The position numbers and the translations under genes were made by a program. The notes under the pieces are model-generated. The model had not been told where the DNA came from and ran no database searches. It saw only the letters and a program-made list of their open reading frames with translations. From NCBI GenBank assembly GCA_964486045.1, contig CAZALK010000001.1, positions 920,837-984,836 of the forward strand: a DNA stretch of 64,000 nucleotides. The letters are read 5' to 3'. How positions within the stretch are numbered: position 1 is the first letter of the stretch; each line of letters begins with the position of its first letter. This stretch comes from an uncultured archaeon (lineage in GTDB: Archaea; Asgardarchaeota; Lokiarchaeia; Sigyniarchaeales; SOKP01). Below are positions 3,860-61,541 of the stretch, piece after piece.

Positions 3860-4804
3860 ATGGTATTTTTAGTTACTGGTGGTGCGGGGTTTATTGGACG
3901 GTGGGTTGTAAAGAAATTATTATCAATGGAAAGAGACATCGTTGTAATTGATAATTTAAGTAATGGTAGTAAAGAAAACTTATTGGAATTTAATGAAAAT
4001 TTGCATTTAAAAGAAATCATTGTAGAAGATATAAGAAATAATAAAATTCTCGATGACTTGTTTTTAAAATATAGATTTAATTGTTGTATTCATTTAGCAG
4101 CTCAAATAAATGTACAAGAAAGCTTAGAAAATCCTGAGAAATCGTTTGAATATAATGTCATAGGAACCTATAATCTCTTAGAAACTGCTCGTAAATATCA
4201 AACAAAAGTAGTTATTGTAGGAACATGTATGGTGTATGATTTAGCAGAATCGGTTATACCAATATCTGAGTCACATAGAACTAAGCCATCTTCTCCTTAT
4301 GCCGGATCTAAATTGGCAGCAGAGGATTTAGCTCTATCTTATTTTTACGGATTTAATTTACCAGTTGTTATATTAAGACCTTTTAACACTTATGGTCCAT
4401 TTCAAAAAACTGATATGGAGGGCGGAGTTGTTCCTATATTTGTTAAGAATAAGATCAACAATGAAAAGTTAAAGGTATTTGGGGACGGAACTCAGACCAG
4501 AGATTTATTATATGTTGAGGATTGCGCTGAATTTATAGTAAAAGCGTCAGAATGCGAAAAATGTGTTGGGGAAGTTATTAATGCTGGAATAGGAGAAGAT
4601 ATTTCTATTAATGATTTAGCAAAATTAATTATTAGTGATGAGAACCTTATTGAACATGTTAAACATCATCACCCACAGAGCGAAATCATGAAACTAGTAT
4701 GTAATAACTTAAAAGCAAAGACATTATTAAAATGGGAACCAAAGATTTCATTAGAAGAGGGGATTGCTAGATTAGAAGAATGGATTCGTGGAGGTGAAAG
4801 ATAA
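3860..4804 (+). CDS. NAD-dependent nucleotide-sugar epimerase/dehydratase (extended SDR)
   Basis: TGGAGFIG, HLAAQ, YAGSK catalytic motif, RPFNTYGP, GDGTQTRD. Confidence 0.9.
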   Translation: MVFLVTGGAGFIGRWVVKKLLSMERDIVVIDNLSNGSKENLLEFNENLHLKEIIVEDIRNNKILDDLFLKYRFNCCIHLAAQINVQESLENPEKSFEYNVIGTYNLLETARKYQTKVVIVGTCMVYDLAESVIPISESHRTKPSSPYAGSKLAAEDLALSYFYGFNLPVVILRPFNTYGPFQKTDMEGGVVPIFVKNKINNEKLKVFGDGTQTRDLLYVEDCAEFIVKASECEKCVGEVINAGIGEDISINDLAKLIISDENLIEHVKHHHPQSEIMKLVCNNLKAKTLLKWEPKISLEEGIARLEEWIRGGER

Positions 4805-5997
4805 TAGAAAAACCAGCAATAGAAGGGGGAAAACCAGTTAGAGCGAATTTTCTTCCCTATGGAACCCAATGGTTAGATGATGATGAAATTGATGAAGTTG
4901 TAAATACATTAAAATCTAACTGGATTACTACTGGTCCTAAAATGAGACTTTTCGAGGAAAATTTTAATAAATATATTGGATCTAAATACGCAGTAGCTGT
5001 TAATTCTGGAACTGCCGCTTTACATGTATCTACTTCAAGTATTGACATAAATCCAGGAGATGAAGTAATTACTACCCCTTTAACGTTTGTTGCATCTGCG
5101 AATTGCATAGTTTATCGAGGGGGAACTCCAGTTTTTGCTGATATCAAAGAGGACACGTACAATATTAATCCTCTTGAGATTAAGAAAAAAATAAATTCAA
5201 AGACGAAGGCAATAATCCCTGTGCATTTTGCAGGTCAACCTTGCGATATGGATGAAATACATGAAATTGCTAATGAAAACGATCTGTATATAATTGAAGA
5301 TGCCGCACACGCAATAGATGCAGAATATAAAGGGAAAAAAATAGGTAATCTCAGTGATTTAACAATTTTTAGTTTCCATCCTGTAAAAAATATCACCACA
5401 GCAGAGGGTGGTATGGTTACAACTAATAATGAGGAATTATATGAAAAGTTAGTAATGTTTAGAACTCATGGAATCACAAAGGATACTATAAAAAGATTTG
5501 GTAAGGAAGGGGGTTTTTATTATGATATGCAACACTTAGGATTTAGATATAACTTAAGCGAACTTCATTCTTCTTTAGGAATTCATCAGTTAAGGAAACT
5601 CAAATCCTTTCAGAAAAGAAGAAGGGAAATTGTCAAAATTTATAACAAAGAATTAAATACAAATGATCTAATTAAAATTCCATTTGTAAAGGAAAATGTT
5701 AAACACTCTTGGCATCTCTACATAATTCAATTAAATTTGGAAAATCTGAAGGTTGATAGAGATCATATTTTTAAAGCTCTTAGAGAAGAAAATATAGGCG
5801 TCAATGTTCACTATATTCCAGTCCACTACCATTCATTTTATTATGAAAAATTTGGATTAAGAAAAGGGATATTACCAAAAGTAGAAAATTTATTTCCAAG
5901 ATTACTAACGATTCCGCTATTTCCTAAAATGAGTGATAAGGATGTTAATGATGTTATAAATGCTTTGGAAAAAGTTCTGAATTATTATCGAAAATAA
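4804..5997 (+). CDS. pseC: DegT/DnrJ/EryC1/StrS sugar aminotransferase (PseC-like); true start upstream of the ORF-track ATG, at ATA 4801 or 4804
   Basis: NSGTAALH, EDAAHA, SFHPVKNITTAEGG (PLP lysine). The in-frame upstream sequence encodes the family N-terminus KPAIEGGKPVRANFLPYGTQWLDDDEI..SNWITTGPK; in-frame TGA at 4795-4797; SD GGAGGTGA at 4790-4797. Confidence 0.8.
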   Translation: MEKPAIEGGKPVRANFLPYGTQWLDDDEIDEVVNTLKSNWITTGPKMRLFEENFNKYIGSKYAVAVNSGTAALHVSTSSIDINPGDEVITTPLTFVASANCIVYRGGTPVFADIKEDTYNINPLEIKKKINSKTKAIIPVHFAGQPCDMDEIHEIANENDLYIIEDAAHAIDAEYKGKKIGNLSDLTIFSFHPVKNITTAEGGMVTTNNEELYEKLVMFRTHGITKDTIKRFGKEGGFYYDMQHLGFRYNLSELHSSLGIHQLRKLKSFQKRRREIVKIYNKELNTNDLIKIPFVKENVKHSWHLYIIQLNLENLKVDRDHIFKALREENIGVNVHYIPVHYHSFYYEKFGLRKGILPKVENLFPRLLTIPLFPKMSDKDVNDVINALEKVLNYYRK

Positions 5998-6202
5998 AAA
6001 AAGATTTAATCTTTTATTTTTCCTTGCATTCGTTTCTATTTAAGAAATGAGGTATTCCTTATTTTTCATTGATCTTAAATATATATTATAATTAACTCAT
6101 TAAGTATTAGAGTAAGTAATAAAAAGAATCAAGTATATTGATAGTGTAGCGTAAAGACTTACCCGAAGATAATATTTTAACTTTATAAATTGAGTTTATA
6201 AA

Positions 6203-7267
6203 ATGGAAAAGAAAGAAGTAGATCTTTATTTTGGCTTTCAAGAAGTTAAAAGCGACAATGCGATCAATTGGGAGAAGAGTCGTTCAGAAGCATATAAAGA
6301 ATATAGGAAAAAATGGGATGAGATACCTAAAACGCTTAAAATACCAAAATTTCCATTACATTTAGATATTGAAGCTTCTAATAAGTGTAATCTCAAATGT
6401 CCAATGTGTCCAAGGACAGTCCGAATTACTGAAGGAAAATGGAGAGCTGAAAGAAATTTTAACTTTTCTTTGTATAAAAAGGTTTTGGATGAAGGTGGAA
6501 AGAAAGGATTATGTGCATTAAATTTAAATCATTCAGGAGAGCCTTTACTTCATCCATCTTTGCCAGAAATGATAAAATATGCAAAAGATGTAGGGATACT
6601 TGATGTTTTTTTTCATACTAATGGTACTTTACTGACAGAAAAGATGTCTAGAAAACTGGTAACCTCAGGCCTTGATAGAATGGTGATTTCTTTTGATTCA
6701 CCATACAGAGAAAAATATAATAGAATTAGGATTGGAGCCGATTATGATCAAGTTTTCGATAATATTAAAAAAATGAAAGATGTAAAAAAAGAATTAAAAA
6801 GTCTTACACCGATAACTCGAATCAATATGGTAAAATTCCTGGATATTGAAAAAAAAGAAATTGATGATGCGGTAAATTTGTTCTCTAAAATTGTCGATAT
6901 AGTCGGATTTTTAGATTATGTAGACTATGATCTCGTATTTAGCAATATAGGAAACAAAATTGAATTTCCTGAAAATTACATATCAAATTTTATTTGTACC
7001 CAACCACTCACAAGAATGACATTATATGAAGATGGCAGAGTTTTCCCATGTTGTTGGGATAGTTATGAGCTTTATTGTATAGGAGATGTAAATAAAAATA
7101 GTCTTGAAAATATTTGGACATCTGACAAATTAGAATTCCTCAGAAAGAAGCACTCAGAGGGTAAATTCTTTGAAATCCCTATGTGTAAGAATTGTATTTA
7201 TGCACTAGAATCTGATAATTTTTCTAAGAAAATTATTCAATCTTCTCATGGTAGAAAGAAATATTAA
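6203..7267 (+). CDS. Radical SAM/SPASM-domain protein
   Basis: FPLHLDIEASNKCNLKCPMC, GEPLLHP, HTNGTLL, C-terminal CTQP..CCWD..CKNC. Confidence 0.88.
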   Translation: MEKKEVDLYFGFQEVKSDNAINWEKSRSEAYKEYRKKWDEIPKTLKIPKFPLHLDIEASNKCNLKCPMCPRTVRITEGKWRAERNFNFSLYKKVLDEGGKKGLCALNLNHSGEPLLHPSLPEMIKYAKDVGILDVFFHTNGTLLTEKMSRKLVTSGLDRMVISFDSPYREKYNRIRIGADYDQVFDNIKKMKDVKKELKSLTPITRINMVKFLDIEKKEIDDAVNLFSKIVDIVGFLDYVDYDLVFSNIGNKIEFPENYISNFICTQPLTRMTLYEDGRVFPCCWDSYELYCIGDVNKNSLENIWTSDKLEFLRKKHSEGKFFEIPMCKNCIYALESDNFSKKIIQSSHGRKKY

Positions 7268-7355
7268 AAAGTGGATTTTAAAAAAAACTTTTTATCAATA
7301 TACCACTTAAACAGAATTAGTAATGGTAATAATTAAAATCAAGATTTAAGTTTCT

Positions 7356-8351
7356 TTGCGTATGGAAAAATCTGAAAAACGAATAATGATTGTAGGAGTC
7401 GGGAATATTGGAAGCCGACATTTACAGGCTTTAAAGGCCATTAATATTCCATTAGACATTTTTGTGATAGATCCAAATCCTGATTCATTAAAGCAAGCAA
7501 AAGAAATGTATGATTCAATGCCCTCAAACAAACAAATTCATGAAGTTACTTATACAAGCTCAATTAAAAAACTTGGTCAAGAAATTGATATAGCAATTAT
7601 CGCTACTAATTCGGATATCAGGAGAAAGGTTATTGAGAAGTTAATTGAATTTAATCAAGTAAATAATTTTCTTTTAGAAAAATTACTATTCCAAAAAGTA
7701 GAAGATTATCATTTCATTAAGGATCTCCTAAAAATAAATAATTGTCGTGCATGGGTTAATTGTAATAGAAGAATTACACCAACTTATAATAACAAAATAA
7801 AAAATTGGTTTAATAAGAAAAAATTATTTTATTATAACATCTCTGGAAGCCTTTATGGCTTAATGACTAATGTTATTCATGAAATAGATTATATGACATA
7901 TCTTCTCGAATCTAATGATTTTTATGTTGACACAACTTATTTGGATAGTAAACTCATCCAAAGTAAGAGAAAAGGATTTCTAGAAATGACTGGAATTTTA
8001 CAAATTCATTTTAAAAATGGTAGTCATGGTTTTTTTGCTCGATATCCTTCAGGAAGGCTTTCAGAAATGACGATAATTGAGTCAGATACAGACCGTTGTA
8101 TTATAAACCTAATAGAGGAAGTATCATGGATCAAAAACATTCAAAAACTAGGATGGAAAACATTTAATGCGATGTTAACCTATCAGAGTGAATTAACTAC
8201 TACAATCATAGAAAATATACTAAATAAAGATAAAAGTTATTTACCCTCTTATAAAAATTCGATGACAATTCATCTGAAATTACTTGAACCTATATTAGAA
8301 TTTATAAATAAAAATTCTTTTCAAAAATTTGATATTTTTCCATTTACATAA
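7356..8351 (+). CDS. Gfo/Idh/MocA-family oxidoreductase (likely start ATG 7362)
   Basis: Rossmann motif GVGNIGSRH, AIIAT, LLEK, VNCNRR. Confidence 0.75.
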   Translation: MRMEKSEKRIMIVGVGNIGSRHLQALKAINIPLDIFVIDPNPDSLKQAKEMYDSMPSNKQIHEVTYTSSIKKLGQEIDIAIIATNSDIRRKVIEKLIEFNQVNNFLLEKLLFQKVEDYHFIKDLLKINNCRAWVNCNRRITPTYNNKIKNWFNKKKLFYYNISGSLYGLMTNVIHEIDYMTYLLESNDFYVDTTYLDSKLIQSKRKGFLEMTGILQIHFKNGSHGFFARYPSGRLSEMTIIESDTDRCIINLIEEVSWIKNIQKLGWKTFNAMLTYQSELTTTIIENILNKDKSYLPSYKNSMTIHLKLLEPILEFINKNSFQKFDIFPFT

Positions 8352-8374
8352 AATTTTGAGAGGAAAATGATAAT

Positions 8375-9340
8375 ATGACTAATGAACTAAATTATTCAGT
8401 CTTATTGGTTGGAGCTGGAGAAATGGCAATCGAATACGTAAAAGTTTTAACAGCCATGGAAAAAAATTCTATTATTGTGGGTAGAGGTGAAGAATCTGCG
8501 AAGAAATTTAAGGAAATTACTGGTCTTAATGTAGAAACAGGAGGAATTAATAATTTTTTAAAAAAAACGAGATGCTCTTCTGAATATGCAATAGTAGCAG
8601 TAAACGGTAACCAATTAGGAGAGGTAACAAGAGAGCTTATTAAATTTGGTATAAAAAATATCCTTTTAGAAAAACCTGGTGGGCTAGACGATAAAGACAT
8701 TGAATCTGTTGCTGAGTTAACTGATAGATATGAAGCTAATGTATTAATTGCTTATAATCGTCGCTTCTATGCATCAGTATCCAAAGCTAAGGAAATTATT
8801 AAAGAAGATGGAGGTGTAACTTCCTTTTATTTTGAGTTTACAGAATGGAGTCATATAATTGAAAAGGCAAATGTGCCCATAGAAGTTAAGAATCGTTTAG
8901 TCCTACATAATTCTTCGCATGTAATCGATTTAGCATTCTATTTGGGGGGTGAGCCAATAAATATTAATTGTTATGTTAATGGTGGTTTGAGTTGGCATCC
9001 CACGGCGTCTATATTTACAGGGGCTGGAATCAGTTCCAAAAATGCAATCTTTTCATATCATTCAAATTGGGATGCACCTGGACGATGGGGTGTAGAAATT
9101 TTAACTAAAAAACATCGACTGATCTTTAGACCTTTAGAGAAACTAAATATTCAAAAAAGAGCAAGTACGGCAATTAAAGAAATTGATATTAACGATGATT
9201 TAGATATAAAATTTAAACCAGGTTTATATAGAGAAGTTGAGGCTTTTTTAGGTGATAATGAGAATGAATTCATGACTATTAAACAGCAAGTATCACGATT
9301 AGCTGTTTATAACATGATTATTAAAGGTAATCATAAATAA
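8375..9340 (+). CDS. Gfo/Idh/MocA-family oxidoreductase
   Basis: GAGEMA, LLEKPG, AYNRRFY, SHVIDL. Confidence 0.8.
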   Translation: MTNELNYSVLLVGAGEMAIEYVKVLTAMEKNSIIVGRGEESAKKFKEITGLNVETGGINNFLKKTRCSSEYAIVAVNGNQLGEVTRELIKFGIKNILLEKPGGLDDKDIESVAELTDRYEANVLIAYNRRFYASVSKAKEIIKEDGGVTSFYFEFTEWSHIIEKANVPIEVKNRLVLHNSSHVIDLAFYLGGEPININCYVNGGLSWHPTASIFTGAGISSKNAIFSYHSNWDAPGRWGVEILTKKHRLIFRPLEKLNIQKRASTAIKEIDINDDLDIKFKPGLYREVEAFLGDNENEFMTIKQQVSRLAVYNMIIKGNHK

Positions 9341-9381
9341 AGTGCAAATTTTTAATATAAAAATCAAAGACAATATTTTAA

Positions 9382-10530
9382 TTATATTTCTAATAAGTTA
9401 AGATAGAATTCCCGTACAATATCTTCAGGAATTGTTTTAATTTTATAACTAAAATCTTTTGAGCAAACTTGATCTATAGCTCTTTTTGTATTTTTATCAA
9501 AATTTTCATTAAAAACCCAAAAATTTTTAAAATTTGGCTTTATATTTTTAAATTTATTAAACATATTAATACCTCTGAGTATAGCATTATCAATAAAAGG
9601 AACACCAATTTTAGTTAAATCCATATATGCGCTAGTATCAAAACCAATTACTAACGTTGAAATGAGAGGATAGAAGGTTGCTTCTGCTGGATACCATATG
9701 TCATCATAAATTATTAAATCTGCTCCAATTTTCTTTGGAACACGTTGATCTTTTTTTCTTTGTTTAATTAAGATAAAAAAGTTTTTACTTTTAAGATATT
9801 TTATAATAGAGCGTACTAATCTTACGTGGCCATAAAAAGGAAAGAAAATTAAAGCAATCTTCTTATCTGTATCAATTTTATTTCTTGCAAAATCTATTTG
9901 TCTATTAATATTTGAAAAAGCAACTGGTAAGGGAGTAACTAAAAATTGTGCGTTGTATCTAGACTGAAAGTGTAATCCATACTCCTCTGAGGAGCATAAA
10001 AATATAGTCTTTGAATCATAATTTTTAATTTCATCAAAACCGTGATGTATTGCATAATGTTTTTTGTAATCAAACTTATCGCTATCTAAACAATTTATAC
10101 TAAAAAGAACATCACATTCTATTTTTTTTTTGGTCAAAGGAATAATTTTAGTGGGATTTAAGGAAGATGCAATATTTTTAAATTTTTCATAGTTCTTTTT
10201 GTGTAGCAAATCATTGTATTTAGCTCTAACATTGGTTATGCATAAAAAAATTGCTTTATTCTTTTCATCTTTTATTAATTCAATTATCGGACCAAAATAT
10301 TTGAAACATCCTAAACCGTTACACACTGCAAAACATACTTTTATTGTTTTATCCTCGTAATCTTCGTAAATCTCCAATAATTCTTTTTCTCCTATAGAGT
10401 CAAATTTGTTAATTTTTTTAGTATTTTTTTTTATCTTTGATTCTAATTTTTTTAAGCTATCAGATTTAGTGATTTCTATAACTCTATTTAGAATCTTCAG
10501 AATAAAGTCGAAAATTATTTTAAGATTCAT
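9382..10530 (-). CDS. Hypothetical protein, possibly a GT-B-fold glycan-modifying enzyme
   Basis: 382-aa ORF inside the glycan island; C-terminal LVIGFDTSAYMDLTKIGVPF resembles a GT-B beta/alpha unit. Function is weak inference. Confidence 0.45.
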   Translation of the reverse strand: MNLKIIFDFILKILNRVIEITKSDSLKKLESKIKKNTKKINKFDSIGEKELLEIYEDYEDKTIKVCFAVCNGLGCFKYFGPIIELIKDEKNKAIFLCITNVRAKYNDLLHKKNYEKFKNIASSLNPTKIIPLTKKKIECDVLFSINCLDSDKFDYKKHYAIHHGFDEIKNYDSKTIFLCSSEEYGLHFQSRYNAQFLVTPLPVAFSNINRQIDFARNKIDTDKKIALIFFPFYGHVRLVRSIIKYLKSKNFFILIKQRKKDQRVPKKIGADLIIYDDIWYPAEATFYPLISTLVIGFDTSAYMDLTKIGVPFIDNAILRGINMFNKFKNIKPNFKNFWVFNENFDKNTKRAIDQVCSKDFSYKIKTIPEDIVREFYLNLLEI

Positions 10531-11069
10531 AAGTAATTTTTCAATTGTTAATACTTAGATATTAGCTTGACTAATTTAATTATTTTATCAATTGACTAAT
10601 TATGCACTTGAACTATAGCAGAAAGCTTTCAAACCGTTTATTATAACTCGAAAACATACAAGAACGCTAAATTTCAACCGCGTTTAAATTTAGAGGCCGG
10701 AAAAACACGATACAAAAGTATTGAACTTAATATTTATTTCATTCATGTTTATAATTATTTGTAAGATCTTAGCAAATTTGTTTTAAAAAATAGAATTTGC
10801 CTGATACAGGTAATATTAGCACCATTTCCTAAAAAAATAGTTTATACATTTAAAATTAAGTCTTTAGGATTTATTACCATTCGCTAATTCTTACATCCAG
10901 ATGATGTGGGTTGAAACGGTTTTGGTTTTTGAATTAAAGTTAACTACTAATAAAGATCGGGATAAAATGTGAGTAAATATTGCATTTTTTTTTGTAAGTA
11001 AAAAATAGAATACGTAAATAGCTGTTAAAGTTTGGTAAAAAATAAATAGTTAATAATTATTCCACAATT

Positions 11070-11834
11070 ATGCATTTTAAATTTTGGTTGAAAACATATT
11101 TATATCGCTTTATTCCATTTAATATAGGGCATCTACATAAATATAAAGAACCTAACTATGACTTCAGTCGTGATAAACATCCTGTTCGAAAAAAACATCA
11201 TGGAGGTGGTGGTTGGGAAAATCAAATGCAAGAAGATTTTCATTACCGTGATTATGAAGATTATGAAGAATATAAAATTCATCAAATACAGAAATTTAAT
11301 GAAATATTAAAAATCGGTTATTTTTCTAATCGAACAATATATTTTTACCGAATAAAATTTTATAAAACTTTTTATAATTTATCAAAATACGTGCCAAAAT
11401 CTTCTTATATTCTATGCGCTGGTGCTCGTCAGGGAACCGAAGTAGAAGTTTTACAAGATCTTGGATTTAAGAAAGCTTATGGAATTGATTTAAATCCCGG
11501 ACCAAATAATAAATTTGTCAAATTTGGGGATTTCATGCATTTAGAGAATCCCAACTCCTCCTTAGATATGATTTACTGCAATTGTCTTGATCACGCATAT
11601 AATCTTGAATCATTTTTTACTGAGCATGCACGTGTAATAAAACCAAAAGGATTTGTATTGTATCATATACCATTAAGAGGTGGAGGTCCATTTGAATCTG
11701 TTAATTGGAAATCTAGTACATCAATTATTATCCTAATGCTTAAATTCTTTAAAAGAATTATAAAAGTAGAGACAGAATTCAATCTAAAATGGATCTTATT
11801 ACAAGGGAAAAAGAATGCAACGAATCAATTATAA
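11070..11834 (+). CDS. Class I SAM-dependent methyltransferase
   Basis: ILCAGARQGTE motif I variant, GIDL, GDF, LDH, ARVIKPKG. Confidence 0.75.
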   Translation: MHFKFWLKTYLYRFIPFNIGHLHKYKEPNYDFSRDKHPVRKKHHGGGGWENQMQEDFHYRDYEDYEEYKIHQIQKFNEILKIGYFSNRTIYFYRIKFYKTFYNLSKYVPKSSYILCAGARQGTEVEVLQDLGFKKAYGIDLNPGPNNKFVKFGDFMHLENPNSSLDMIYCNCLDHAYNLESFFTEHARVIKPKGFVLYHIPLRGGGPFESVNWKSSTSIIILMLKFFKRIIKVETEFNLKWILLQGKKNATNQL

Positions 11835-11988
11835 TATTAATATTTAATTCAAAGAAATCAAATTTTGTTTGATTAAATGAGATTTTCACATTTATGAATT
11901 ATATCCTTATTTTAAAATTAAACTCATTCAAAGATAAATAGTCCTAAGAAGAATATATATAAATTAAATATCAAATTATTATTTAAAA

Positions 11989-12821
11989 ATGAGATATTAT
12001 GATGAGATTAATAAAAGGCTACTTTACTTTAGAAAAAAAGTAGATGGAAAAGACTTATGGGATAATCATTGGTTAAAAACTTTAAATGAAGACAGAAAAT
12101 TAATATATTCTTATAAGCCAAAATCTTTGGTTTGTAAAATAACTTCTAAATTTTTGACTCCCAGAGATGGACCTATACTTGAAGGTGGGTGTGGATTAGG
12201 ATATAATGTATATCACTTAAGTAAACTGAATTATAAAATTATTGGTGTTGATAACGCTAATAAAACTATAGAATTAATTAAAAAACAGAATCCCGAATTA
12301 AATTTTCAATTTGGGGATGTAAGAAAATTATCATATCAAAAAAATTATTTTGCAGGATACTGGTCATTAGGTGTAATAGAGCATTTTTTTGATGGCTTTT
12401 CTCAAATCGCTTTAGAAATGAAGAGGGTTATAAAACCAAACGGTTTTTTATTTCTTACATTTCCATATATGTCGCCGTTTAGGAAATTGAAAGTAAAGTT
12501 TCACTTCTTCAAAATATTTAATAATACATATTACGAAAAATTCAAAAAACTAAGAATTTCTATCAGTTTATTCTTAATAAGAAAAATATTGTTGAGATTT
12601 TTGAAAAAATTGGCTTCATTCATAAATATACATCCAAGGAGGGGGGCATAAAAGGATTTAAAGATGAAATCTTCTTTTTAAAATTTTTTCTGAAAAGATT
12701 TTTTCAATTGCTCTATAAAGCCAATAAACCAAAAATAGTCAATAAAATAAAGAGATTAATAGATAAGGTTTTTAGCAAATTTACAGCTCATACCATTGTT
12801 TTAGTATTTCAAAAGGCTTAA
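11989..12821 (+). CDS. Class I SAM-dependent methyltransferase, split by a 1-nt frameshift near 12544-12549
   Basis: LEGGCGLG, GVD, GDV, SLGVIEHF, RVIKPNG; the reading continues in another frame after the A6 run as KNFYQFILNKKNIV...HTIVLVFQKA* ending at 12821. Confidence 0.75.
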
Positions 12822-12893
12822 ATTTTACAATAAAAAAAACTATTATAATTAACACCTATAAAATTCATAAATTAGCTGATTTAAACTAATAAT

Positions 12894-14549
12894 ATGGCAA
12901 TAAGAGATCTTACAGACAACAAAAATTATTTTGAGAAATTACCAAATATCGTGCTTATATCATGGCATTATGATAACGAATCTATTGGTCCCTATCCTTA
13001 TTGTGGGAGACGTGAAATAATCTGCGGACCTAACCTGCAAAATAGAGATTCTAAAGAAAGAAAATTTATTCGTACAAGTGGACGTTTTTTTGATATAGAT
13101 GAAGTGCTTTCACAGCTAAATGAAAATGATCAAAAAATTGATTTAATTGTTTCTATCCTTGAAAGTAGCAATAAAATCAGTTTTCCAAAAAATTTATCTA
13201 AAATAAAATGTCCTAAACTTGCTTTAGTTACTGACACACATCATTCAATGTACCCTATAAGTTCAGTAATTCGTTACATAAAACGCGAAAAATTTGAACA
13301 TATGCTTATTTTTGCACAACCAGCTCACTTACATTTTTTTTATGAAGCAAGTATTAAACATTGTGCATATATTCCACGGCCTGTACTGAAGCTCGAAACA
13401 GTGGATAATAAAAAACCTTGGGTAACATTCATTGGAAAAAGGTGGAAATCCTCACATCCACGTCGCAGTAGGATGTTACAATTTTTAGAAAAAAAGTTGC
13501 CCAAGAAAAATATCCCATTTCATAGATATAACCGTCTTTCCAAACCAAATTGGAGAAAAGTTTTAACCCATTCAAAAATAGTTGTTGTTAGTAGTTTAAA
13601 TGGACAAATAACTCCTCAAATATATAGTGCCCTTTGTGCTGGAGCATTATGTCTCGCTGACGAATTAAGTTCACAAACATCCCTTTATCGATTTTTTGAA
13701 CCTGGAAAACATTTCGTTGAATGGAATAGTTTTGAAGATTTGCTAGAAAAAATTATTTATTATTATAATCATCCTGGCGAAGCAGAAGCAATTGCTAAAG
13801 CAGGGAATCTCCAAGCTGAAAATATATACATAAGTTATGAAAGTTTTCCACATTTTGTTTCAGAATTTGTTTTTGAAAATAAAATTGATGAATGTTTATT
13901 AGCTATAAAAGATCATCGATGTCAGGAAAATAGTAATGAAGCACGGGAATATTTTAATGCAAGAGTAAGGTTATATGAAAATATTCAAGAATTGCACCGT
14001 ATTCACGAATCTTTGAGGTTAATTTCGATGACAGATAAAAATCTTAAACCATCCGCAGATTTAGCTGATTTACAAAGATTAAAAATAACTCATACTTTTA
14101 TTTCTGATATTTCAAAAAAAGAAGCTGACTTTTACTTTGAGAGTGTTGGAGTGAGTCATCAAATAAAAACAATTATGATAAATAAAATACAAAAATATCG
14201 TTCATTTGATATTGGAATTTTAGAAACCCCAACAAACCAAGCTGTTTGGAAATTTCTGGTGAATAATATTTCGAGTCTACTTAAATTGAATTCATTATTA
14301 TGGGTGTTAGGCAAACTAACATCTAATGATAAAGAGATTTTAAAAGGAGAAGGTTTTAAACCTTATTTCTTGAATAAAACTTCAGCAATGTCAACAATTA
14401 GAGAAAAGAGTAAAAAGCTATGTTTTTTGTTTTGGAAAATGGGGATGTATCCTTTCCCATACTTAACATTAAAACCAACTATGGAAACAACTACTAATCT
14501 AAATGTATTTCTACGAGGTTGGCAGTCTAATTTATCATTTATATATTAG
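12894..14549 (+). CDS. Glycosyltransferase-like protein (CgeB/Glyco_trans_1_2 type domain plus C-terminal extension)
   Basis: VTDTHH, VTFIG, SLNGQ..IYSALCAGA, FEPGKHFVEWNSFEDLLEKIIYYYNHPGEAEAIAKAG is the typical CgeB-like C-terminal signature. Confidence 0.7.
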   Translation: MAIRDLTDNKNYFEKLPNIVLISWHYDNESIGPYPYCGRREIICGPNLQNRDSKERKFIRTSGRFFDIDEVLSQLNENDQKIDLIVSILESSNKISFPKNLSKIKCPKLALVTDTHHSMYPISSVIRYIKREKFEHMLIFAQPAHLHFFYEASIKHCAYIPRPVLKLETVDNKKPWVTFIGKRWKSSHPRRSRMLQFLEKKLPKKNIPFHRYNRLSKPNWRKVLTHSKIVVVSSLNGQITPQIYSALCAGALCLADELSSQTSLYRFFEPGKHFVEWNSFEDLLEKIIYYYNHPGEAEAIAKAGNLQAENIYISYESFPHFVSEFVFENKIDECLLAIKDHRCQENSNEAREYFNARVRLYENIQELHRIHESLRLISMTDKNLKPSADLADLQRLKITHTFISDISKKEADFYFESVGVSHQIKTIMINKIQKYRSFDIGILETPTNQAVWKFLVNNISSLLKLNSLLWVLGKLTSNDKEILKGEGFKPYFLNKTSAMSTIREKSKKLCFLFWKMGMYPFPYLTLKPTMETTTNLNVFLRGWQSNLSFIY

Positions 14550-14649
14550 AATTACTCAAAGTCTTTCGTAACTATAATTTTAAACTCTCAAAGGTATTCG
14601 AATTTAAGTTTAGGAAATGAGTCAGGAGTGTAACACTCATAATTAATAT

Positions 14650-15426
14650 TCATAGATAAATCACGCCTATTCCAGCCCAATTTTGGTTTACGTCTTTGAT
14701 GATCTCAACAGAATCGTACTCATTTTTTATTTCATTCCAAAACTTACTAACCTCACATTCATGCTTGGGGGAAATCTCAACTATATCATGCAATGCAATA
14801 ATACCTCCTTCTTTAACTAAACCCAAGTACATGTTGAAGTCTCTTTTAACACCTTCATAGGTGTGATCTCCATCGATAAATAGAAAATCAACCATTCTAC
14901 CATCAAGAACGATCTTAGCGAGTTCAAGCGTTTTCTGATTATGAGAATCGGCTCTTAATAAATCGATTTTTTGTCTCCTTTTCGCAAAAGATTGATAGAG
15001 AGGGACCTTCCATTTGGTATAACCTCCTCCAAAAGGTCCTCCTGGAAGATCTATACTTATTAGATTGGCTTCGGGATGGGCTATTTTTGTAAAAAGAAAA
15101 AAGGTTCCTCCCCCAGCTGTTCCTATTTCCAAGATTGTTTTAGGTTTTAATTCTTTAAGAATTTCAAGGAGTTTAGTTATCTCATATTTAACTTGACACG
15201 TTCTAATAGTAAAACCAAGATATTGAAAAGAGAAAGCAAACTGAATAATATCCTTAATATCATTAATTTTCTTGATTTCTTTATTTAAAAACTTTCCTTT
15301 ATTCAATTTTAAAACGATTATTGGACTAAGTAATTTCATCACTTTAGAATAAATGTAAAATGCCGATTTCTTAAGAACTGGGGGCATTATCCTATATAGC
15401 TGTAAAATTCTGTTTTTAAATGACAT
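14650..15426 (-). CDS. Class I methyltransferase (Methyltransf_24 type)
   Basis: ILEIGTAGGGT, SIDL, DFLFIDGDHTYEGVKRDF, GGIIALHDI, GIGVI. Confidence 0.85.
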   Translation of the reverse strand: MSFKNRILQLYRIMPPVLKKSAFYIYSKVMKLLSPIIVLKLNKGKFLNKEIKKINDIKDIIQFAFSFQYLGFTIRTCQVKYEITKLLEILKELKPKTILEIGTAGGGTFFLFTKIAHPEANLISIDLPGGPFGGGYTKWKVPLYQSFAKRRQKIDLLRADSHNQKTLELAKIVLDGRMVDFLFIDGDHTYEGVKRDFNMYLGLVKEGGIIALHDIVEISPKHECEVSKFWNEIKNEYDSVEIIKDVNQNWAGIGVIYL

Positions 15427-15959
15427 ATTATTGCAACATTATTTATACAATTGAGTAATGTAATTTAAGTACTTGATTATTATTAGGTTGTCTATTTTCT
15501 TGTTGATACATTGTTACGATTATAGAGTCATTGAAAGGACTTCTTACTACGCGGGTATTTTTAATTTTATAAATCAAAAATCTATGAAGTAGAAGATATG
15601 AAAATCCTTAATGATTGTGCTAATAATCCAATTAATAAAAACCTTGTTAGGGTATGTAATAAGGCTAGACCGATAGAAATCGATGAAAATATTAAAATTC
15701 CAATCAAATTTTTTTATTTTTCTTCTTTTAAATTTATAATTTTATCGTAAATAAAAGTAAAAATGGTAAATAATACCAAAAAAAGAAAATGGAATTGAAG
15801 GTCAATATGGGAAACTAAAGTTTATTGAAAACTAATTTAAGATAGATCTATCAAATCCACTTTAAAAGGTTTTAAATTGTGGATCTCGTAAATTAAAAAG
15901 ATTACATATTTTTGATAAAGATAAAATTTTAAATTTTAAAAGCCATACCAAATATACTT

Positions 15960-16529
15960 ATGGCACATAAAGAACAAAGAGATTTTATAAAAAGGCTTAA
16001 AAAAGAATTCCCGAAGGCATTTAAAGAGCGTAAAGTGTTGGACATAGGTTCTTTTGATGTGAATGGCAATGAAGAACCATTTTTTGACAATTGTGACTTT
16101 ATTGGATTGGATATAGGTCCTGGGCCAGGTGTTCATGTTGTTTGTCCAATACAAGATTATAATGCTCCCGATGAAACATTTGGTACCATTATTTCGTGTG
16201 AATGTTGGGAACATAACCCATTCTTTAAAGAAAGTATTCCGAATGTGATAAGAATGTTAAAATCAGGAGGTTATTTCATTTTTACTTGTGCCACCACCGG
16301 TAGACCAGTTCATGGGGTTGCTTCAATGGAAAAAGAATGTAAAGAAAAATATGAAAATTGGAAAACAATGCCAAATGTTTCACGAGAGAACTGGGATAAT
16401 GAATATTATAAAACCTTAACAGAATCTGATATAAGAGAATGTATGGATGTAGATGAAATATTTAAAGAATATGAATTTGAAGTGGAGACTAATCACTGCG
16501 ATTTATATTTCTGGGGGATTAAAAAATAA
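15960..16529 (+). CDS. Class I SAM-dependent methyltransferase
   Basis: VLDIGSFDVNG, GLDIGPGPGV, SCECWEHNP, LKSGG. Confidence 0.8.
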   Translation: MAHKEQRDFIKRLKKEFPKAFKERKVLDIGSFDVNGNEEPFFDNCDFIGLDIGPGPGVHVVCPIQDYNAPDETFGTIISCECWEHNPFFKESIPNVIRMLKSGGYFIFTCATTGRPVHGVASMEKECKEKYENWKTMPNVSRENWDNEYYKTLTESDIRECMDVDEIFKEYEFEVETNHCDLYFWGIKK

Positions 16530-16722
16530 AAATTAAGATATAATTGTAAGATCAATACATATTTCAAAATGAAACTACGTTTTAACCTCCTCGGGATTAT
16601 ACTTTTATCAAATAACAATAAACAATACTCTTTCCTTCAATTAATTATATTAATATATTTTTAACGCTTTCACTGGAATTTTAAAAAATATTTAATTAAA
16701 AGAACTTATTTATCCCTATTAA

Positions 16723-17640
16723 ATGAGAAATACAGATCAATCAAAAAATAACTATTTTTCAATTTTAATGGCTAATTTTAATAATGCCAGATTTATTAAG
16801 ACTGCTATAAACAGTGTCATTTCTCAGACATATCCATACTGGGAATTAATTATTGTAGATGATTGTTCTACAGATAATTCATTAACTATTATTAATCATT
16901 TACTAAAAGATGATAGAATTAAATTAATAAGACATGAAAGAAATCAGGGATATGGAGGTTCTTTAAAAACTGCTGCAGCTAACGGATTAAATGATATAAT
17001 TGGAATAGTTGATGCAGATGATAAGCTCCATAAAGATGCTTTAAAAATTATTGCAGATGCTTATCAAAAAAATCCTGATTATGGTTTTATTTATAGTACT
17101 ATGTGGGAATGTGACGCCCAATTAAAGAATTGCATAAAAAACAGATGGATAGGATATGACGTGCCAAAAAAAACAAATATTTTTAAAATTAAGATATCTC
17201 ATTTTAAAACTTTTCTAAGAAGAGCTTATTTAAAGACATCTGGTTTCGATCCAGACCAAAAGAGAGCTGTGGATAAAGATATTATTTTTAAATTAGAAGA
17301 AGTAACTAAATTCAAATTTGTAAATATTCCCCTATATTATTACAGATGGCATAGGGAAGGAATCTCACAAGCTAAAAGTTCATTTCAACCAGAATTTTAC
17401 CATTATCTAGCGAAATTAAAAGCCTATAAAAGAAGACTGAATACGAAAATTCCCAACTTCACTAGAAAACAGATTTCTTTTGAATACTATAGAATAACCT
17501 TTTATAAAGTAATCCATTTTCTGCTTTATTTGTATGACAAATTAAAAATTAGAGCTCTAGTTAAAGGATCGCTAGAAAAAAACTATTATATTCTTGAGTC
17601 CATTAAATTGAAGCTAAGATTTCTAAAAAAATTTAATTAA
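16723..17640 (+). CDS. Glycosyltransferase family 2
   Basis: SILMANFN..AINSVISQTYPYWELIIVDDCSTD, DxD motif VDADD. Confidence 0.9.
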   Translation: MRNTDQSKNNYFSILMANFNNARFIKTAINSVISQTYPYWELIIVDDCSTDNSLTIINHLLKDDRIKLIRHERNQGYGGSLKTAAANGLNDIIGIVDADDKLHKDALKIIADAYQKNPDYGFIYSTMWECDAQLKNCIKNRWIGYDVPKKTNIFKIKISHFKTFLRRAYLKTSGFDPDQKRAVDKDIIFKLEEVTKFKFVNIPLYYYRWHREGISQAKSSFQPEFYHYLAKLKAYKRRLNTKIPNFTRKQISFEYYRITFYKVIHFLLYLYDKLKIRALVKGSLEKNYYILESIKLKLRFLKKFN

Positions 17641-18768
17641 TTATGTCTTATAAAGCAGTTCTTCAATTAAATTGACCCATTTATTAAAAAATTTACTTTT
17701 TACGAAAATATTAATGCGTTCGGTTGATTTTTTGGAAAATCTTTCTCTGGCTTCTTGGTTTTTAGCTAAATAAATCATTTTTTCCCCTAAATCACTTGAA
17801 TCTGCTACATTAGTTAAAATGCCATATTTTCCATTGGCTAGTATTTCTTTTGGGCCTGTTTCGCAGTCGGTTGAAACTATTGGTAGGTTACAAACTAAAG
17901 CTTCAATTAACACAGTAGGGAGACCTTCGTGTAGAGAAGAAAGTACAAAGATATCCGCTTTTGAAAGGTATTTATAAGGATTCTTCTTAGTTCCAAGTAG
18001 AATCACCTTATTTTCTAGTTGTTTATCTTTTATTGATTTCATTAATTTTGCTCTTAATGGTCCCTCCCCAATTATAAACAATCTAGAATTGGGGATTTCT
18101 TTAATCACTTTAGAAAAGGCATTAATCAGGTATTTATGTCCTTTTTCCTTTGATAATCTACCAATCGTTATGAATTTGATTAAACTTGTATTATTTAGTA
18201 TTTCATTATAATCACTAACGTTTTCTTTTGCTAGTTTTTGGATTCCTTCAATATCGAAACCATTATAAATCGGCCTAATTTTCATTCCATCCAATCTATA
18301 CTTATTAACTAAAATATTTTTAAGCTCTTTTGAAACAGGTACAATTGTACTTACTTTTTTTAAAGGATATAAGAATCTAATTAAATATTTTCCGTATAGT
18401 CTTTTACGATAATGAAAATTTGGATTAGTATTTAAACTTATAATTAGTGGAGAATCATTTTTGTATATATACATAAATGGAATAATCCAGAAACTTGTTT
18501 TATTCATAAAAGTAATAATAATATCTGGGGAAATCGATTTAATTATTTTGTGAATTTTGAAATACCTTAAAAAAACACCTCTAAAATGATGTCTTTCTTG
18601 AATAGTATAATATTTCCCTTTGAAGGGATAAATCTCAGGGAAATGAAAAAAAGTAAGTATAGAGATATCATACTTTTTTGACAAATTTAAAGAAAGATCT
18701 GAAGCTACTTTTTCAGCACCTCCACCAAACATTAAGGAGGGGACTAAAATTAAAATTTTTTTACTCAT
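17641..18768 (-). CDS. Glycosyltransferase family 4
   Basis: GGGAEK, IYNG, IGRLSKEKG, GEGP, EGLPTVLIEA (E-x7-E), TDCETGPKEIL. Confidence 0.9.
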   Translation of the reverse strand: MSKKILILVPSLMFGGGAEKVASDLSLNLSKKYDISILTFFHFPEIYPFKGKYYTIQERHHFRGVFLRYFKIHKIIKSISPDIIITFMNKTSFWIIPFMYIYKNDSPLIISLNTNPNFHYRKRLYGKYLIRFLYPLKKVSTIVPVSKELKNILVNKYRLDGMKIRPIYNGFDIEGIQKLAKENVSDYNEILNNTSLIKFITIGRLSKEKGHKYLINAFSKVIKEIPNSRLFIIGEGPLRAKLMKSIKDKQLENKVILLGTKKNPYKYLSKADIFVLSSLHEGLPTVLIEALVCNLPIVSTDCETGPKEILANGKYGILTNVADSSDLGEKMIYLAKNQEARERFSKKSTERINIFVKSKFFNKWVNLIEELLYKT

Positions 18769-18977
18769 CAGTAGGATTTTATTCTATTTCAGGAATATAT
18801 ATTAGTAGTTTTAAATGGCTTTAAATTGTTAAAATTTATTAAATTTTAGATGAAGGTTAAGTATTTACTTTAGGTTCATTACTGAAAAAACTTAAGGAAA
18901 TAGAATATTATTAAAATCCACCAGAGTATTTAATAATTAAATTAAAAACAAATAAATTATTACTACTAAATCATACT

Positions 18978-20129
18978 ATGGACGATCTTATCCCTATTGA
19001 GGAAGTTGTTAAAGAAAATCCTCGAGTTAAAGAACTTGAACAACAAGGTTTTATCATCAAACCTGAAAAGATTGATGAATACTTAAATGAGTTTAAGAAC
19101 AGGATATCTGCTTTACCTGATGAAAAATTCTGGAATGACAAAAGAGTGTTAATAACTGGAATTAGTGGGTTTGCAGGAAGCCATTTAGCAGAACAATTAT
19201 TAAATTTAGGTTGTAAAGTTCATGGGACTATACGTAGGCATGCTGTGCCTATGCATGAGAATATCGAACATCTTAGAGGTAAAATTACATTACATGAAGC
19301 TGACATCACATCAGCAGAAAGGATTCTTAGCATATTTGAGGAAATACAACCAAACGCTGTATTTCATCTAGCTGCTGAATCTTTTATACCAACTTCTTTT
19401 AGAGAACCCATAAGAGTAAGTTATAATAATATAGTAGGTACAATTACGATTTTTGAAGCCGCAAGAAGGTTTGATGACGATTTAAATAGTATACATGTTG
19501 CTTGTAGTAGCGAACAATACGGTTTAGTAGATCCGAATGAAGTTCCTGTAACAGAAAATATAAAGAAAAACCCATTCCGTCCTAGAAGCATTTATGGAAT
19601 ATCTAAATGCGCAACAGAGCAAATAGCTTGGTTATATCATGATGCTTACGGTGTACCAAGTATTATTACTCGGGGTTTTAATCATGAAGGTCCTAGAAGA
19701 GGAATTCAGTTCGTTACAAGTGTAGTGCATAGACAAATTGTTGAGATTCTGGAAAATAAAAGAGATAAAATAATTATTGGAAATCCTAATTCTATACGAG
19801 ATTTTACACATGTAAAGGATACAGTGAACGCTTATATCTTAACGAGCGAAAAAAAGATTTATGGAGAACCTTTTAATGTTTGTTCTGGGAAAGGAATTAG
19901 CATCGCAGATTACGTGAAATTAGCAAAAAATTTATACAATCTGAATAATGAAGTTTTTATCGACCCGAAAAGGCTTAGACCCAGTGAAGTGCCATTGTTA
20001 GTTGGTAGAAATGAGAAAATTCACCGAAAAACTGGATGGCTACCAACGAGAACTGTTATTGATATTATAAAAGAAGGAGTTCAATACTTTCAAGAACATC
20101 AAGAGCAATTAGGAATTGAAGCCCATTAA
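18978..20129 (+). CDS. gmd: GDP-mannose 4,6-dehydratase-like SDR
   Basis: TGISGFAGSHLA, HLAAESF, SSEQYG, PRSIYGISK, FNHEGPRRG..FVT, GNPNSIRDF, LRPSEV. Confidence 0.75.
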   Translation: MDDLIPIEEVVKENPRVKELEQQGFIIKPEKIDEYLNEFKNRISALPDEKFWNDKRVLITGISGFAGSHLAEQLLNLGCKVHGTIRRHAVPMHENIEHLRGKITLHEADITSAERILSIFEEIQPNAVFHLAAESFIPTSFREPIRVSYNNIVGTITIFEAARRFDDDLNSIHVACSSEQYGLVDPNEVPVTENIKKNPFRPRSIYGISKCATEQIAWLYHDAYGVPSIITRGFNHEGPRRGIQFVTSVVHRQIVEILENKRDKIIIGNPNSIRDFTHVKDTVNAYILTSEKKIYGEPFNVCSGKGISIADYVKLAKNLYNLNNEVFIDPKRLRPSEVPLLVGRNEKIHRKTGWLPTRTVIDIIKEGVQYFQEHQEQLGIEAH

Positions 20130-20156
20130 AGTTTTAATATAATTTATATGAAATAA

Positions 20157-20873: not shown

Positions 20874-21005
20874 CTAATAATAACCAATTTTTGTTAATCT
20901 AATTACTAATAAAAATGATAGTAATTGAAAGTTTTATATGCAAAGAGTCTACTATTATATTTTTTGTTAAGTAAAAAAGTTAATTAAATTCAAGGTAATT
21001 TCTTT

Positions 21006-22109: not shown

Positions 22110-22155
22110 CTCAAAGCCCTCAATTATTATTCATATAAAAAATTTAAGATTTAAA

Positions 22156-23835: not shown

Positions 23836-23845
23836 CGTTTTCACC

Positions 23846-29528: not shown

Positions 29529-29534
29529 GAGGTG
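29529..29534 (+). promoter_or_regulatory. Shine-Dalgarno motif GAGGTG for aor
   Basis: GAGGTG lies 8 nt before ATT 29543; the same motif precedes pseC, pheT, the acyl-CoA ligase (31448) and Fe-ADH. Confidence 0.7.
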
Positions 29535-31417: not shown

Positions 31418-31447
31418 AATCTAAGTTTATGTGAAGAGGTGATTTGA

Positions 31448-53380: not shown

Positions 53381-53393
53381 TTTCTTTATTATA

Positions 53394-53762: not shown

Positions 53763-53767
53763 GTATA

Positions 53768-58144: not shown

Positions 58145-58149
58145 AAAAG

Positions 58150-59665: not shown

Positions 59666-61003
59666 GTGGCAAAAGCAGCAGATTTAAAAAATAAGGATGG
59701 ATTTGTTGAAGGTCAAGCATATTTCTGCCCAGAATGTAATAGAATGCATAATAAAGGAAAAATATACAAAGAACATTTAGAGTATGCCCAAACAGAGAAA
59801 TCTACTGAGGACTCTAAAGAAAATAATTTTGATGATGAACAAGAATTAATTGAAGCATTCAATGAAATAGAAAAAGAAGTTGGTGTAGAAGAAGACATAG
59901 GTGTAGAAGAAGACATAGGTGTAGAAGAAGACATAGGTGTAGAAGAAGTCATAGGTGTAGAAGAAGACATAGGCGCAGAAGAAGACATAGGTGTAGAAGA
60001 AGACATAGGCGCAGAAGAAGATATAAATTTGCTCTTAGATGACAACGATGATACTATTGAGGATAGTGTAAAGACAGTTAAAAAACTTCCAGGTGTAGGA
60101 GAAGCTACTCTTAATAAACTTATAAAAGCAGGTTTCAATAGCCTTGAATCTATAGCATATACACCACCTAGAATAATCAAAGAGGAGAGCGGACTTGGTG
60201 ATAAAACGATTGAAAAATTAATAAAAGCCTCGATGGAACAATTGGGATTAGGTTTTAAATCTGCAGAAGCAATATGGGAGCACAGAAAGAATATTGCTAG
60301 AATTACAACGGGAAGTCAAGAATTAGATGACGTATTAGGTGGTGGTATAGAGACGGGGAGTGTTATTGAGTTTTTTGGAGAATTTAGAACGGGTAAAACT
60401 CAGATCATGCATCAGTTATGTGTGAACGTACAGTTACCAAAGGAAAAAGGTGGACTCGAGGGTAGAGCTTTATATATAGATACTGAAGGAACCTTTCGAC
60501 CAGAAAGGATTATACAGATGTCAGAAGGTCTTGATATAGATTATAAACAGGTGCTTAAGAATATCGTTTATGGAAGAGCCTACAATAGTGATCACCAAAT
60601 ACTCTTAGTTAAGGAAGCTACTAACTTAATCAAAGAAAAAAACATTAAGTTAATTGTGATTGACTCATTAATTGGTCATTTCCGAAGTGAATATATTGGT
60701 CGAGGTACATTAGCAACTAGACAACAGACCATCAATGCTCATCTCCATGACTTATTGAGATTGTGTGATATATATACGGATTTAGCAGTTGTACTAACTA
60801 ATCAAGTCCAGTCTAAGCCAGATACATTTTATGGGAACCCATTACGGGCTACAGGAGGAAATATTGTTGCTCATGGGTCAACTATTAGGATTTATTTACG
60901 AAAAGGTAAGGGAGAACAGAGGATTGCAAAAGTAGTCGATGCCCCTCACCTACCCGAAGGCGAGGCTGTTTTTAGTATTCTTGAGAGTGGGATATCTGAT
61001 TAA
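59666..61003 (+). CDS. radA: RadA/Rad51-family recombinase with N-terminal Zn-finger and acidic repeat extension
   Basis: HhH (LPGVG), FxxA polymerisation motif (GFKSA), Walker [20 protein letters not shown], Walker [28 protein letters not shown]. Confidence 0.95.
59882..60025 (+). repeat. In-frame 18-bp tandem repeat, 8 copies (GGTGTAGAAGAAGACATA) encoding G(V/A)EE(D/V)I
   Basis: Five exact copies and three variants read directly from the sequence. Confidence 0.95.
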
Positions 61004-61044
61004 TTCAGTTTCAAAGAAAGCTTTTCATTAAATCAATTCCTTCA

Positions 61045-61269
61045 CTATATTTTTATTTTCCAACCAAATTTTTGAGTAAACTCAATTTTTTCCTCATTAT
61101 TCAGTTGGTGTATTATCAAATTTATTACTTTTTCAGAAATAGTAATTCTTTGAATAGCTGCTCTCTCTAAAATTTTATCACTCAATATTTTTTGCGATTT
61201 TACTGACTTTTCTTCATACAGTATCTTTAAAATGATCTTTTCAATCTGTTTTTCAATTTTAGATGAGAT
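61045..61269 (-). CDS. Small winged-helix-like protein (74 aa) with probable ATC start; absent from the ORF track
   Basis: (I)SSKIEKQIEKIILKILYEEKSVKSQKILSDKILERAAIQRITISEKVINLIIHQLNNEEKIEFTQKFGWKIKI*; SD GGAGG at 61278-61282; no ATG/GTG/TTG between the upstream TAG (61303) and codon 28. Confidence 0.6.
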   Translation of the reverse strand: MSSKIEKQIEKIILKILYEEKSVKSQKILSDKILERAAIQRITISEKVINLIIHQLNNEEKIEFTQKFGWKIKI

Positions 61270-61541
61270 TGCTAATCCCTCCTTTTTCTTTTCTAAAATA
61301 TGCTATCTTTTGTATTATTTAATAGTCATCTGATCTACTTTTTTTTGAATATCGTTTGATGTTATCTAAGAAGTCAAAAAATATTCTACAATTTAATCTA
61401 TTTAACTATACCACTAATGGTTTAGAACTATTGGAATTCAATGACATTAAAAAATCTCTATTTAATAAAAAAATTACTCTAATATATAATTACTTTCAAA
61501 AAAAAATAGAATTGTAAAACAAAAAATACAAAATAAAAATT

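Follow-up and report, generated by a model that had tools for sequence, protein, structure and literature searches.

Predicted translation starts at near-cognate codons behind Shine–Dalgarno motifs in a genus of Sigyniarchaeales (Lokiarchaeia)

The window analysed here is a 64,000-nucleotide stretch of contig CAZALK010000001.1 (assembly GCA_964486045.1, positions 920,837 to 984,836) from an uncultured Lokiarchaeial archaeon of the order Sigyniarchaeales. Five genes in it, pseC, aor, coaD, pheT and a small winged helix-turn-helix (wHTH)-like gene, had been proposed from the sequence alone (the original prediction) to start at near-cognate codons placed behind Shine–Dalgarno (SD) cores, and all five sites are present in the sequence where they were reported. 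In the genus to which this genome belongs, AUA, AUU and AUC (together AUH), and occasionally ACG and CUG, are very probably the true start codons of a class of genes with an SD motif, as predicted from sequence comparison. Near-cognate starts account for at least about 80 of the roughly 4,800 genes of the genome and for about half of the starts that lie behind a strong SD. These codons stand in frame, at the optimal distance from the SD, are conserved or interchangeable among species, and are indispensable for conserved N termini. The proposal that such initiation is systematic, with a fixed distance to the SD, is borne out by codon enrichment, a reading-frame control and conservation within the genus.

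The genome under study (G000) is a metagenome-type assembly of 5.18 Mb in 45 contigs, with a GC content of 31% and an estimated contamination of 7.8%; 4,804 genes were called in it by open reading frame (ORF) length and hexamer score. Its 16S rRNA ends in ...GGATCACCTCCT, which defines the SD of this organism as AGGAGGTGATCC. Among unambiguous ATG genes, an SD match of at least 5 nt has its first G 11–18 nt upstream of the start codon, with a peak at 14 nt. Such a match precedes only about 16% of these genes, in keeping with the remark that SDs are rare in Lokiarchaea (PMC12993045). The broader claim that SD position defines the start in this lineage therefore holds for a minority of genes only. 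Relatives were sought in 40 genomes, of which 24 belong to the genus itself and 16 to other families of the order.

A blind codon test took, for each gene, all in-frame codons that follow the upstream stop and precede the first ATG, GTG or TTG, and counted those located 13–15 nt behind an SD that had no ATG, GTG or TTG at 10–19 nt in any frame. It was run on G000, on 0.8 Mb of one genus genome and on 1.2 Mb of a genome from another family. Of the 61 codons, only ATA (44, against a background of 3.8%; P = 7.5e-11), ATC (P = 1.5e-7), ATT (P = 2e-5) and ACG (P = 1.3e-4) were enriched in G000, with no enrichment of codons that are equally AT-rich. The predicted genome-wide excess at SD distance is thus found for these four codons and not for CTG. 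Near-cognate codons occupy 116 of 331 positions where about 38 were expected, which corresponds to about 78 extra genes. The distance peak is 14 nt for ATA and ATT and 14–15 nt for ATC and ACG, the same as for ATG genes, and ATA, ATT and ATC make up 32% of the positions in frame versus 6.8% and 5.7% in the two remaining frames. The complementary decoy motif, passed through the same scan, gave no near-cognate signal. The marginal ATT signal of a second decoy (P = 0.019) was not counted, because that motif contains GTGAG and is no clean decoy. The chance share of ATA, ATT, ATC and ACG among in-frame codons at SD distance is about 11%; an SD followed by a near-cognate codon is, by itself, weak evidence for any single gene.

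From the near-cognate codon to the first canonical one, the sequence has a coding-type score (0.31 per codon, versus 0.33 over the opening 30 codons of ATG genes led by an SD), and the operon context of the candidates resembles that of SD-led ATG genes. An SD of at least 6 nt precedes 53% of the near-cognate candidates, versus 30% of ATG, 18% of TTG and 19% of GTG starts. Counted the other way, the in-frame codon behind an SD of at least 6 nt is ATG in 56 cases, ATA in 24, ATT in 18, TTG in 11, ATC in 10, ACG in 4 and GTG in 3; ATA, ATT and ATC together (52) thus roughly equal ATG in number at strong SDs. In the 0.8 Mb of the complete genus genome, ATA, ATC and ATT were again the top three codons (21 of 54). 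The list of candidates includes the ribosomal proteins L21e and L34e, a TFS/RpoM-like zinc ribbon, V-ATPase subunit D, archaeosine tRNA-guanine transglycosylase, an actin homologue, small GTPases and ferredoxins; several of them would lose essential motifs if translation began at the first canonical codon. One ACG candidate proved to be a false positive, lying inside the coding stretch of a Walker-A motif (KGGVGKT). ACG was observed behind an SD in G000 nine times, with about 1.4 cases expected. Blind-scan hits for this codon include C30:16873, C3:185900 and, on the reverse strand, C2:122164; the examples encode response-regulator receiver, thiolase-like and flavin mononucleotide (FMN)-dehydrogenase-like proteins, with the first canonical codon 22–69 codons downstream.

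In the window, the start of pseC (4804–5997, forward strand), which encodes a PseC-like DegT/DnrJ/EryC1 aminotransferase, is fixed by alignment with its orthologues, with support from Pfam. Its SD, GGAGGTGA (4790–4797), is a perfect 8-nt match to the 16S rRNA 3' end and sits within the 3' end of the upstream epimerase/dehydratase gene (3860–4804). The pseC frame contains a TGA at 4795 and no ATG, GTG or TTG before the ATG at 4942. Of its two ATA codons, at 4801 and 4804, the orthologues fix 4804 as the start position: this ATA aligns exactly with the ATG of the orthologues in two sister species (G018, 82% identity, and G017), giving MEKPAIEGGKPVR, and the N terminus at the aligned start reads MEKPAIEGGK. 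ATA 4804 overlaps the TAA stop of the epimerase gene (TAATA), and the first G of the SD lies 14 nt before it, the modal distance of ATG genes. The SDs of the ATG-bearing sister genes are weaker than the 8-mer of G000. Positions 4–359 of the 360-position DegT profile match residues 25–388 of the protein, and the first ATG would correspond to residue 47, so that the predicted ATA start restores 46 codons that hold no ATG, GTG or TTG. pseC is an accessory gene, and only these two close orthologues were found among the 40 relatives.

For aor (29543–31417, forward strand), encoding an aldehyde:ferredoxin oxidoreductase, and coaD (27179–27622, reverse strand), encoding a CoaD-like cytidylyltransferase, the predicted ATT starts are supported by conservation within the genus. 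The aor SD, GAGGTG (29529–29534), is preceded by an in-frame TGA at 29528, four codons upstream of ATT 29543, and an ATG follows at 29555. All 17 of the 17 genus orthologues retain the start ATT TAC GGT TAT, apart from synonymous changes (TAC/TAT, GGT/GGA); the SD and its 8-nt distance to the ATT are conserved in the same 17 species, in which the letters of the spacer vary. Paralogues of aor begin with M-V-N-G-Y from an ATG at the adjacent codon. In coaD, the SD AGGTG (27635–27631) is followed by an 8-nt spacer that ends in an in-frame TAG, by ATT 27622 and by an ATG at 27604; the N terminus predicted from the ATT is (M)LKKVGMGGTFDHLHEGHK. The ATT is kept in 19 of 19 genus species. At the position of ATG 27604, 15 of the 19 genus genomes (G000 included in the 19) have a leucine codon, TTA or CTA in 14 and TTG in one, and in 14 of them the first canonical start lies 20–70 codons downstream, beyond the GGTFDHLHEGH motif. 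Most species consequently have no other usable start for coaD. In other families the gene has a longer N terminus with an ATG. The Pfam profiles AFOR_N and CTP_transf_like begin too far into the proteins to decide the aor and coaD starts.

Two genes outside the window show the same pattern without a nearby canonical codon. The L21e gene (C14:118487, forward strand) begins at a near-cognate codon behind an SD, and among 19 genus genomes its start is ATA in ten, ATC in three, ATT in three, CTG in one, TTG in two and ATG in none. AAGGTG always precedes this start in the genus, and the first canonical start lies about 50–85 codons into a gene of about 100 codons; in other families of the order L21e starts at ATG or TTG. 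The gene for the initiation factor aIF1 (SUI1; C1:612478–612795, reverse strand, 308 kb before the window) is a 108-codon frame that contains no Met codon. Its product matches Methanocaldococcus jannaschii aIF1 (4MO0; 5.1e-26) from residue 5 onward. In 21 of 21 genus genomes a conserved ATT stands 8 nt behind GTGATAA, and a canonical codon first appears 21–86 codons downstream; the gene of this fidelity factor thus itself starts at a disfavoured codon that is conserved in the genus. In other families of the order the aIF1 start is TTG, GTG, ATG or ATA, and elsewhere in the phylum aIF1 has no canonical start at 6 of 30 loci, where ATA (two families) or CTG (one family) is found.

The remaining two sites of the window are less firm. 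pheT (22156–23835, reverse strand), encoding the phenylalanyl-tRNA synthetase beta subunit, probably starts at CTG 23835, as judged from its relatives and Pfam. The SD GAGGTGA (23847–23841) overlaps the pheS stop TGA (23848–23846) and leaves a 5-nt spacer, with the SD anchor 13 nt before the CTG. In 28 relatives the codon aligned with it is ATG, TTG or GTG and encodes residue 1 (MPT[IL]), and position 1 of the Pfam PhetRS_B1 profile coincides with residue 1. The wHTH-like gene (61045–61282 with its SD, reverse strand) has a candidate start at ATC 61269, 7 nt after GGAGGG (61282–61277) and 13 nt from the SD anchor, in a frame (61302–61045) of 85 codons that contains no ATG; it has no Pfam match. 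In 12 of 15 relatives the wHTH domain ends a frame of 126–196 codons, and in G000 a stop lies 11 codons before the ATC and the GGAGG of GGAGGG is specific to this genome. The proposed SD and ATC are present, but the start is only plausible, because the gene is an N-terminally shortened version of the longer frame in relatives. Pfam confirms the identities of the other four products (DegT for pseC, AFOR_N/C for aor, CTP_transf_like for coaD and PheRS beta domains for pheT). Weak canonical starts also occur behind the same SD, as had been noted: an 8-nt match, AGAGGTGAT, precedes TTG 31448 of an AMP-binding acyl-CoA ligase gene (31433–31450, forward strand, for the SD and start), and 5-mer SDs lie 12–15 nt upstream of TTG 34815 (pyruvate phosphate dikinase, PPDK), TTG 49663 (amidohydrolase) and GTG 59666 (RadA).

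Several points weigh against near-cognate initiation as a general habit of the genus, or limit it. The gene calls were home-made, from ORF length and hexamer score, and do not come from a validated gene finder. Chance would account for about one third of the 119 candidates on the list. The signal in the other family of the order (1.2 Mb) is weaker, with ATA at P = 0.009 and about six extra cases. CTG was not significantly enriched in G000 (3 versus 13 for the background, P = 0.23), and in pheT an in-frame GTG at 23844, three codons upstream of the CTG, lies inside the SD itself, directly behind the pheS stop, so that a canonical alternative start exists.

One alternative, that translation really begins at downstream ATG, GTG or TTG codons, that the proteins are shorter at the N terminus and that the pairing of SD and near-cognate codon is coincidental, is highly improbable and is already contradicted for most cases. 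It draws on the ATG codons that follow 4 and 6 codons downstream in aor and coaD of G000, on the Pfam profiles AFOR_N and CTP_transf_like, which begin at about those residues, and on the in-frame GTG of pheT. It is contradicted by the first canonical codon lying 20–86 codons downstream, past essential motifs, in coaD (14 of 19), L21e (18 of 19) and aIF1 (21 of 21), and by a genome-wide enrichment that is specific to frame and distance, with extensions of coding-like composition. Sequencing or assembly errors, or pseudogenes that have lost their start codon, are an extremely improbable source of the pattern, even in a 45-contig metagenome-type assembly with its estimated contamination, in which the pseC start is one base off its sisters and a neighbouring leucine-rich repeat (LRR) gene is frameshifted. 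A Logan contig from the likely source run, an independent assembly of the same sample at a depth of 286, shows no differences over 4600–24274, a range that covers pseC and pheT; two further runs (X2 and X3) yielded only related strains, in short contigs of 90–97% identity. For aor, coaD, L21e and aIF1, consensus errors are excluded by conservation across many separately assembled species, the same near-cognate codons recurring in 17–21 of them, and the genes are otherwise intact and conserved.

Dedicated decoding of AUH, by a second initiator-like tRNA, a modified anticodon or editing of the start codon to AUG in the RNA, would resemble the reading of AUA by mitochondrial tRNA-Met, and is very unlikely here. 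The dominance of AUA, AUU and AUC, which differ at the third position only, would suit it. The initiator tRNA gene (C1:583602–583725, forward strand), found with a regular expression for the acceptor stem, is canonical, with A1..U72, three G:C pairs (GGG/CCC) in the anticodon stem, the anticodon CAT and an intron of about 49 nt after the anticodon loop; it is the sole initiator tRNA found. ARAGORN, with and without intron search, returned only 12–31 tRNAs and missed the initiator, a search of the genome with the Rfam tRNA model gave 25 hits of which none was the initiator, and simple anticodon-loop patterns also failed. Because many tRNA genes carry introns, only 25–31 are detectable and the tRNA set is incompletely known, which leaves some room for a dedicated reader. 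The use of ACG and CTG besides AUH fits a general tolerance of one mismatch better than such a reader. Internal ATA exchanges with ATT among orthologues, so that ATA is read as isoleucine inside genes and the code is unchanged. Changed decoding, in the form of internal AUA read as methionine or of an initiator-like tRNA with an anticodon other than CAU, was not found in this incomplete tRNA inventory.

The start codon follows the first G of the GGAGGUGA SD at a distance of 13–15 nt, which corresponds to a spacer of 5–8 nt. In the mechanism favoured here, the normal initiator tRNA (anticodon CAU) would read near-cognate codons with one mismatch. A long SD/anti-SD duplex may position the codon in the P site and offset the weak pairing, as in bacterial infC and pcnB and in Staphylococcus aureus ccpN, and the result would be lowered or tunable expression. 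aIF1, which rejects non-AUG complexes, would itself be translated from a conserved AUU, and its level might therefore be self-limiting, with a permissive stringency as the outcome. That this feedback sets stringency low in the genus, making a strong SD with AUH a regular second class of start even for ribosomal proteins, is put forward tentatively and is rather doubtful as it stands. Genus-specific radical substitutions were sought in aIF1 and none was found, the changes at conserved columns being conservative only. Near-cognate starts are widespread, as relaxed start-codon discrimination would have it, but with a canonical initiator tRNA and an aIF1 without radical change, such relaxation is something that we infer.

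Ordinary tuning and drift under normal fidelity offer a quite possible account, though one short of probable, in which AT-biased mutation turns ATG into ATA or ATT under weak selection on expression and slow growth, and strong SDs persist since they rescue enough output. The GC content of 31%, the canonical initiator tRNA and the unremarkable aIF1 protein agree with it, as does pseC, where a recent change from ATG to ATA is accompanied by an SD stronger than those of the ATG-bearing sisters. Such sites also occur in bacteria at low frequency (PMC13009471). The weaker signal in the similarly AT-rich genome of the other family (GC 31%) counts partly for drift and partly against it. Drift is harder to reconcile with L21e, an essential and highly expressed gene that stands on ATA, ATC, ATT or CTG throughout the genus without reversion to ATG, and with the ATT of aor, coaD and aIF1, kept in 17–21 species, which looks like maintenance. 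Behind strong SDs, moreover, near-cognate codons match ATG in frequency.

Bacteria are known to use near-cognate starts behind extended SDs, in a handful of genes per genome. In S. aureus they are found in four genes, infC (AUA), cvfC1 (AUU), ccpN (AUA) and citZ (AUA), all with extended SDs, and the AUA and AUU starts give about 10–30% of the output of AUG (PMC13009471). The infC and pcnB genes of Escherichia coli start at AUU, according to work cited in PMC13009471. The Lokiarchaeial starts resemble this infC/pcnB/ccpN type in having AUU or AUA behind a strong or extended SD at the proper spacing, in the conservation of the weak codon and in the resulting annotation errors. They share its SD distance above chance, its conservation or exchange of the codon and an SD stronger than at AUG starts; a conserved N terminus without any preceding canonical codon is found in pseC (46 codons), coaD (14 of 19), L21e and aIF1, and not strictly in aor, coaD and pheT of G000. 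They differ in number, with at least about 80 genes (1.6% or more) and parity with ATG behind strong SDs, in the inclusion of core ribosomal proteins, in the additional use of ACG, and in an archaeal host with eukaryote-type aIF1, aIF1A and aIF2 in place of initiation factor 3 (IF3).

The aIF1 gene also recalls two autoregulated factors that reject poor starts. Bacterial IF3, whose gene infC starts at AUU or AUA, limits its own synthesis through its poor start site (PMC13009471), and eukaryotic eIF1 does so through an AUG whose context is poor (Ivanov et al. 2010, cited by PMC6237735); Sulfolobus solfataricus aIF1 destabilises complexes on non-AUG mRNA, again as cited in PMC6237735. As in those cases, the gene of the rejecter begins at a poor start (ATT, 21 of 21); unlike in those cases, the loop is suggested by analogy, and other genes of this lineage share such weak codons with aIF1. 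There is a further likeness to eukaryotic and mitochondrial non-AUG initiation, in which codons with one mismatch are read by the initiator tRNA. Stringency towards non-AUG codons is set there by eIF1-type factors in eukaryotes and by the mitochondrial IF3 (IF3mt) in mitochondria. The Lokiarchaeial starts depart from both in relying on SD pairing at a fixed distance, and not on scanning with a Kozak context or on leaderless mRNAs, in the dominance of AUH over CUG, and in an unchanged code for internal AUA. The literature on near-cognate or non-canonical starts in Asgard archaea and Lokiarchaea yielded no report of this habit. What sets the Lokiarchaeial starts apart is their scale, their setting in an archaeon with eukaryote-like machinery, their presence in genes of core ribosomal proteins and the case of aIF1.

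NCBI translation table 11 lists ATT, ATC, ATA and CTG as starts, and gene calling of the Prodigal type accepts only ATG, GTG and TTG, so that it truncates or misses about 2% or more of the genes in genomes such as this one. Public protein sets hold, letter for letter, the products that begin at ATG 4942, ATG 29555 and ATG 27604 of this contig; public gene calls therefore truncate pseC (to 351 amino acids), aor and coaD, in agreement with the mis-annotation that had been foreseen. Genes cut or missed in this way include those of aIF1, L21e, L34e, the TFS/RpoM-like zinc ribbon, the actin homologue and small GTPases, and the truncation distorts Asgard protein families, marker sets and structure predictions. 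If AUH starts do work efficiently with a eukaryote-type machinery, these archaea would be a natural system for studying how the stringency of aIF1/eIF1 is set and has evolved, and the lineage could show whether autoregulation of a fidelity factor predates eukaryotes.

Some features of the window and the assembly lie apart from these starts. The RadA/Rad51 gene (59666–61003, forward strand) carries an acidic tandem repeat, (V/A)EEDIG, in about eight copies (about 59900–60010), within an N-terminal extension before the helix-hairpin-helix (HhH) and ATPase domains. Two LRR frames on the forward strand, 44149–44784 and 44700–45897, overlap, and the second runs for 172 codons without an ATG, GTG or TTG; together they look like one gene with a frameshift in 44700–44784, through a repeat assembly error, a pseudogene or recoding. 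A large, repeat-rich ORF (61542–64000, reverse strand) runs past the window end into a scaffold gap of 100 N; the segment IVSTLNFNLRIVYAESN is duplicated on both sides of this gap, which leaves the assembly unresolved there. One identical stretch occurs in both contig C7 and contig C8, equally far from the end of each (C7:1357 and C8:1357), so that the contig ends may be duplicated or a repeat may lie at the contig boundaries.

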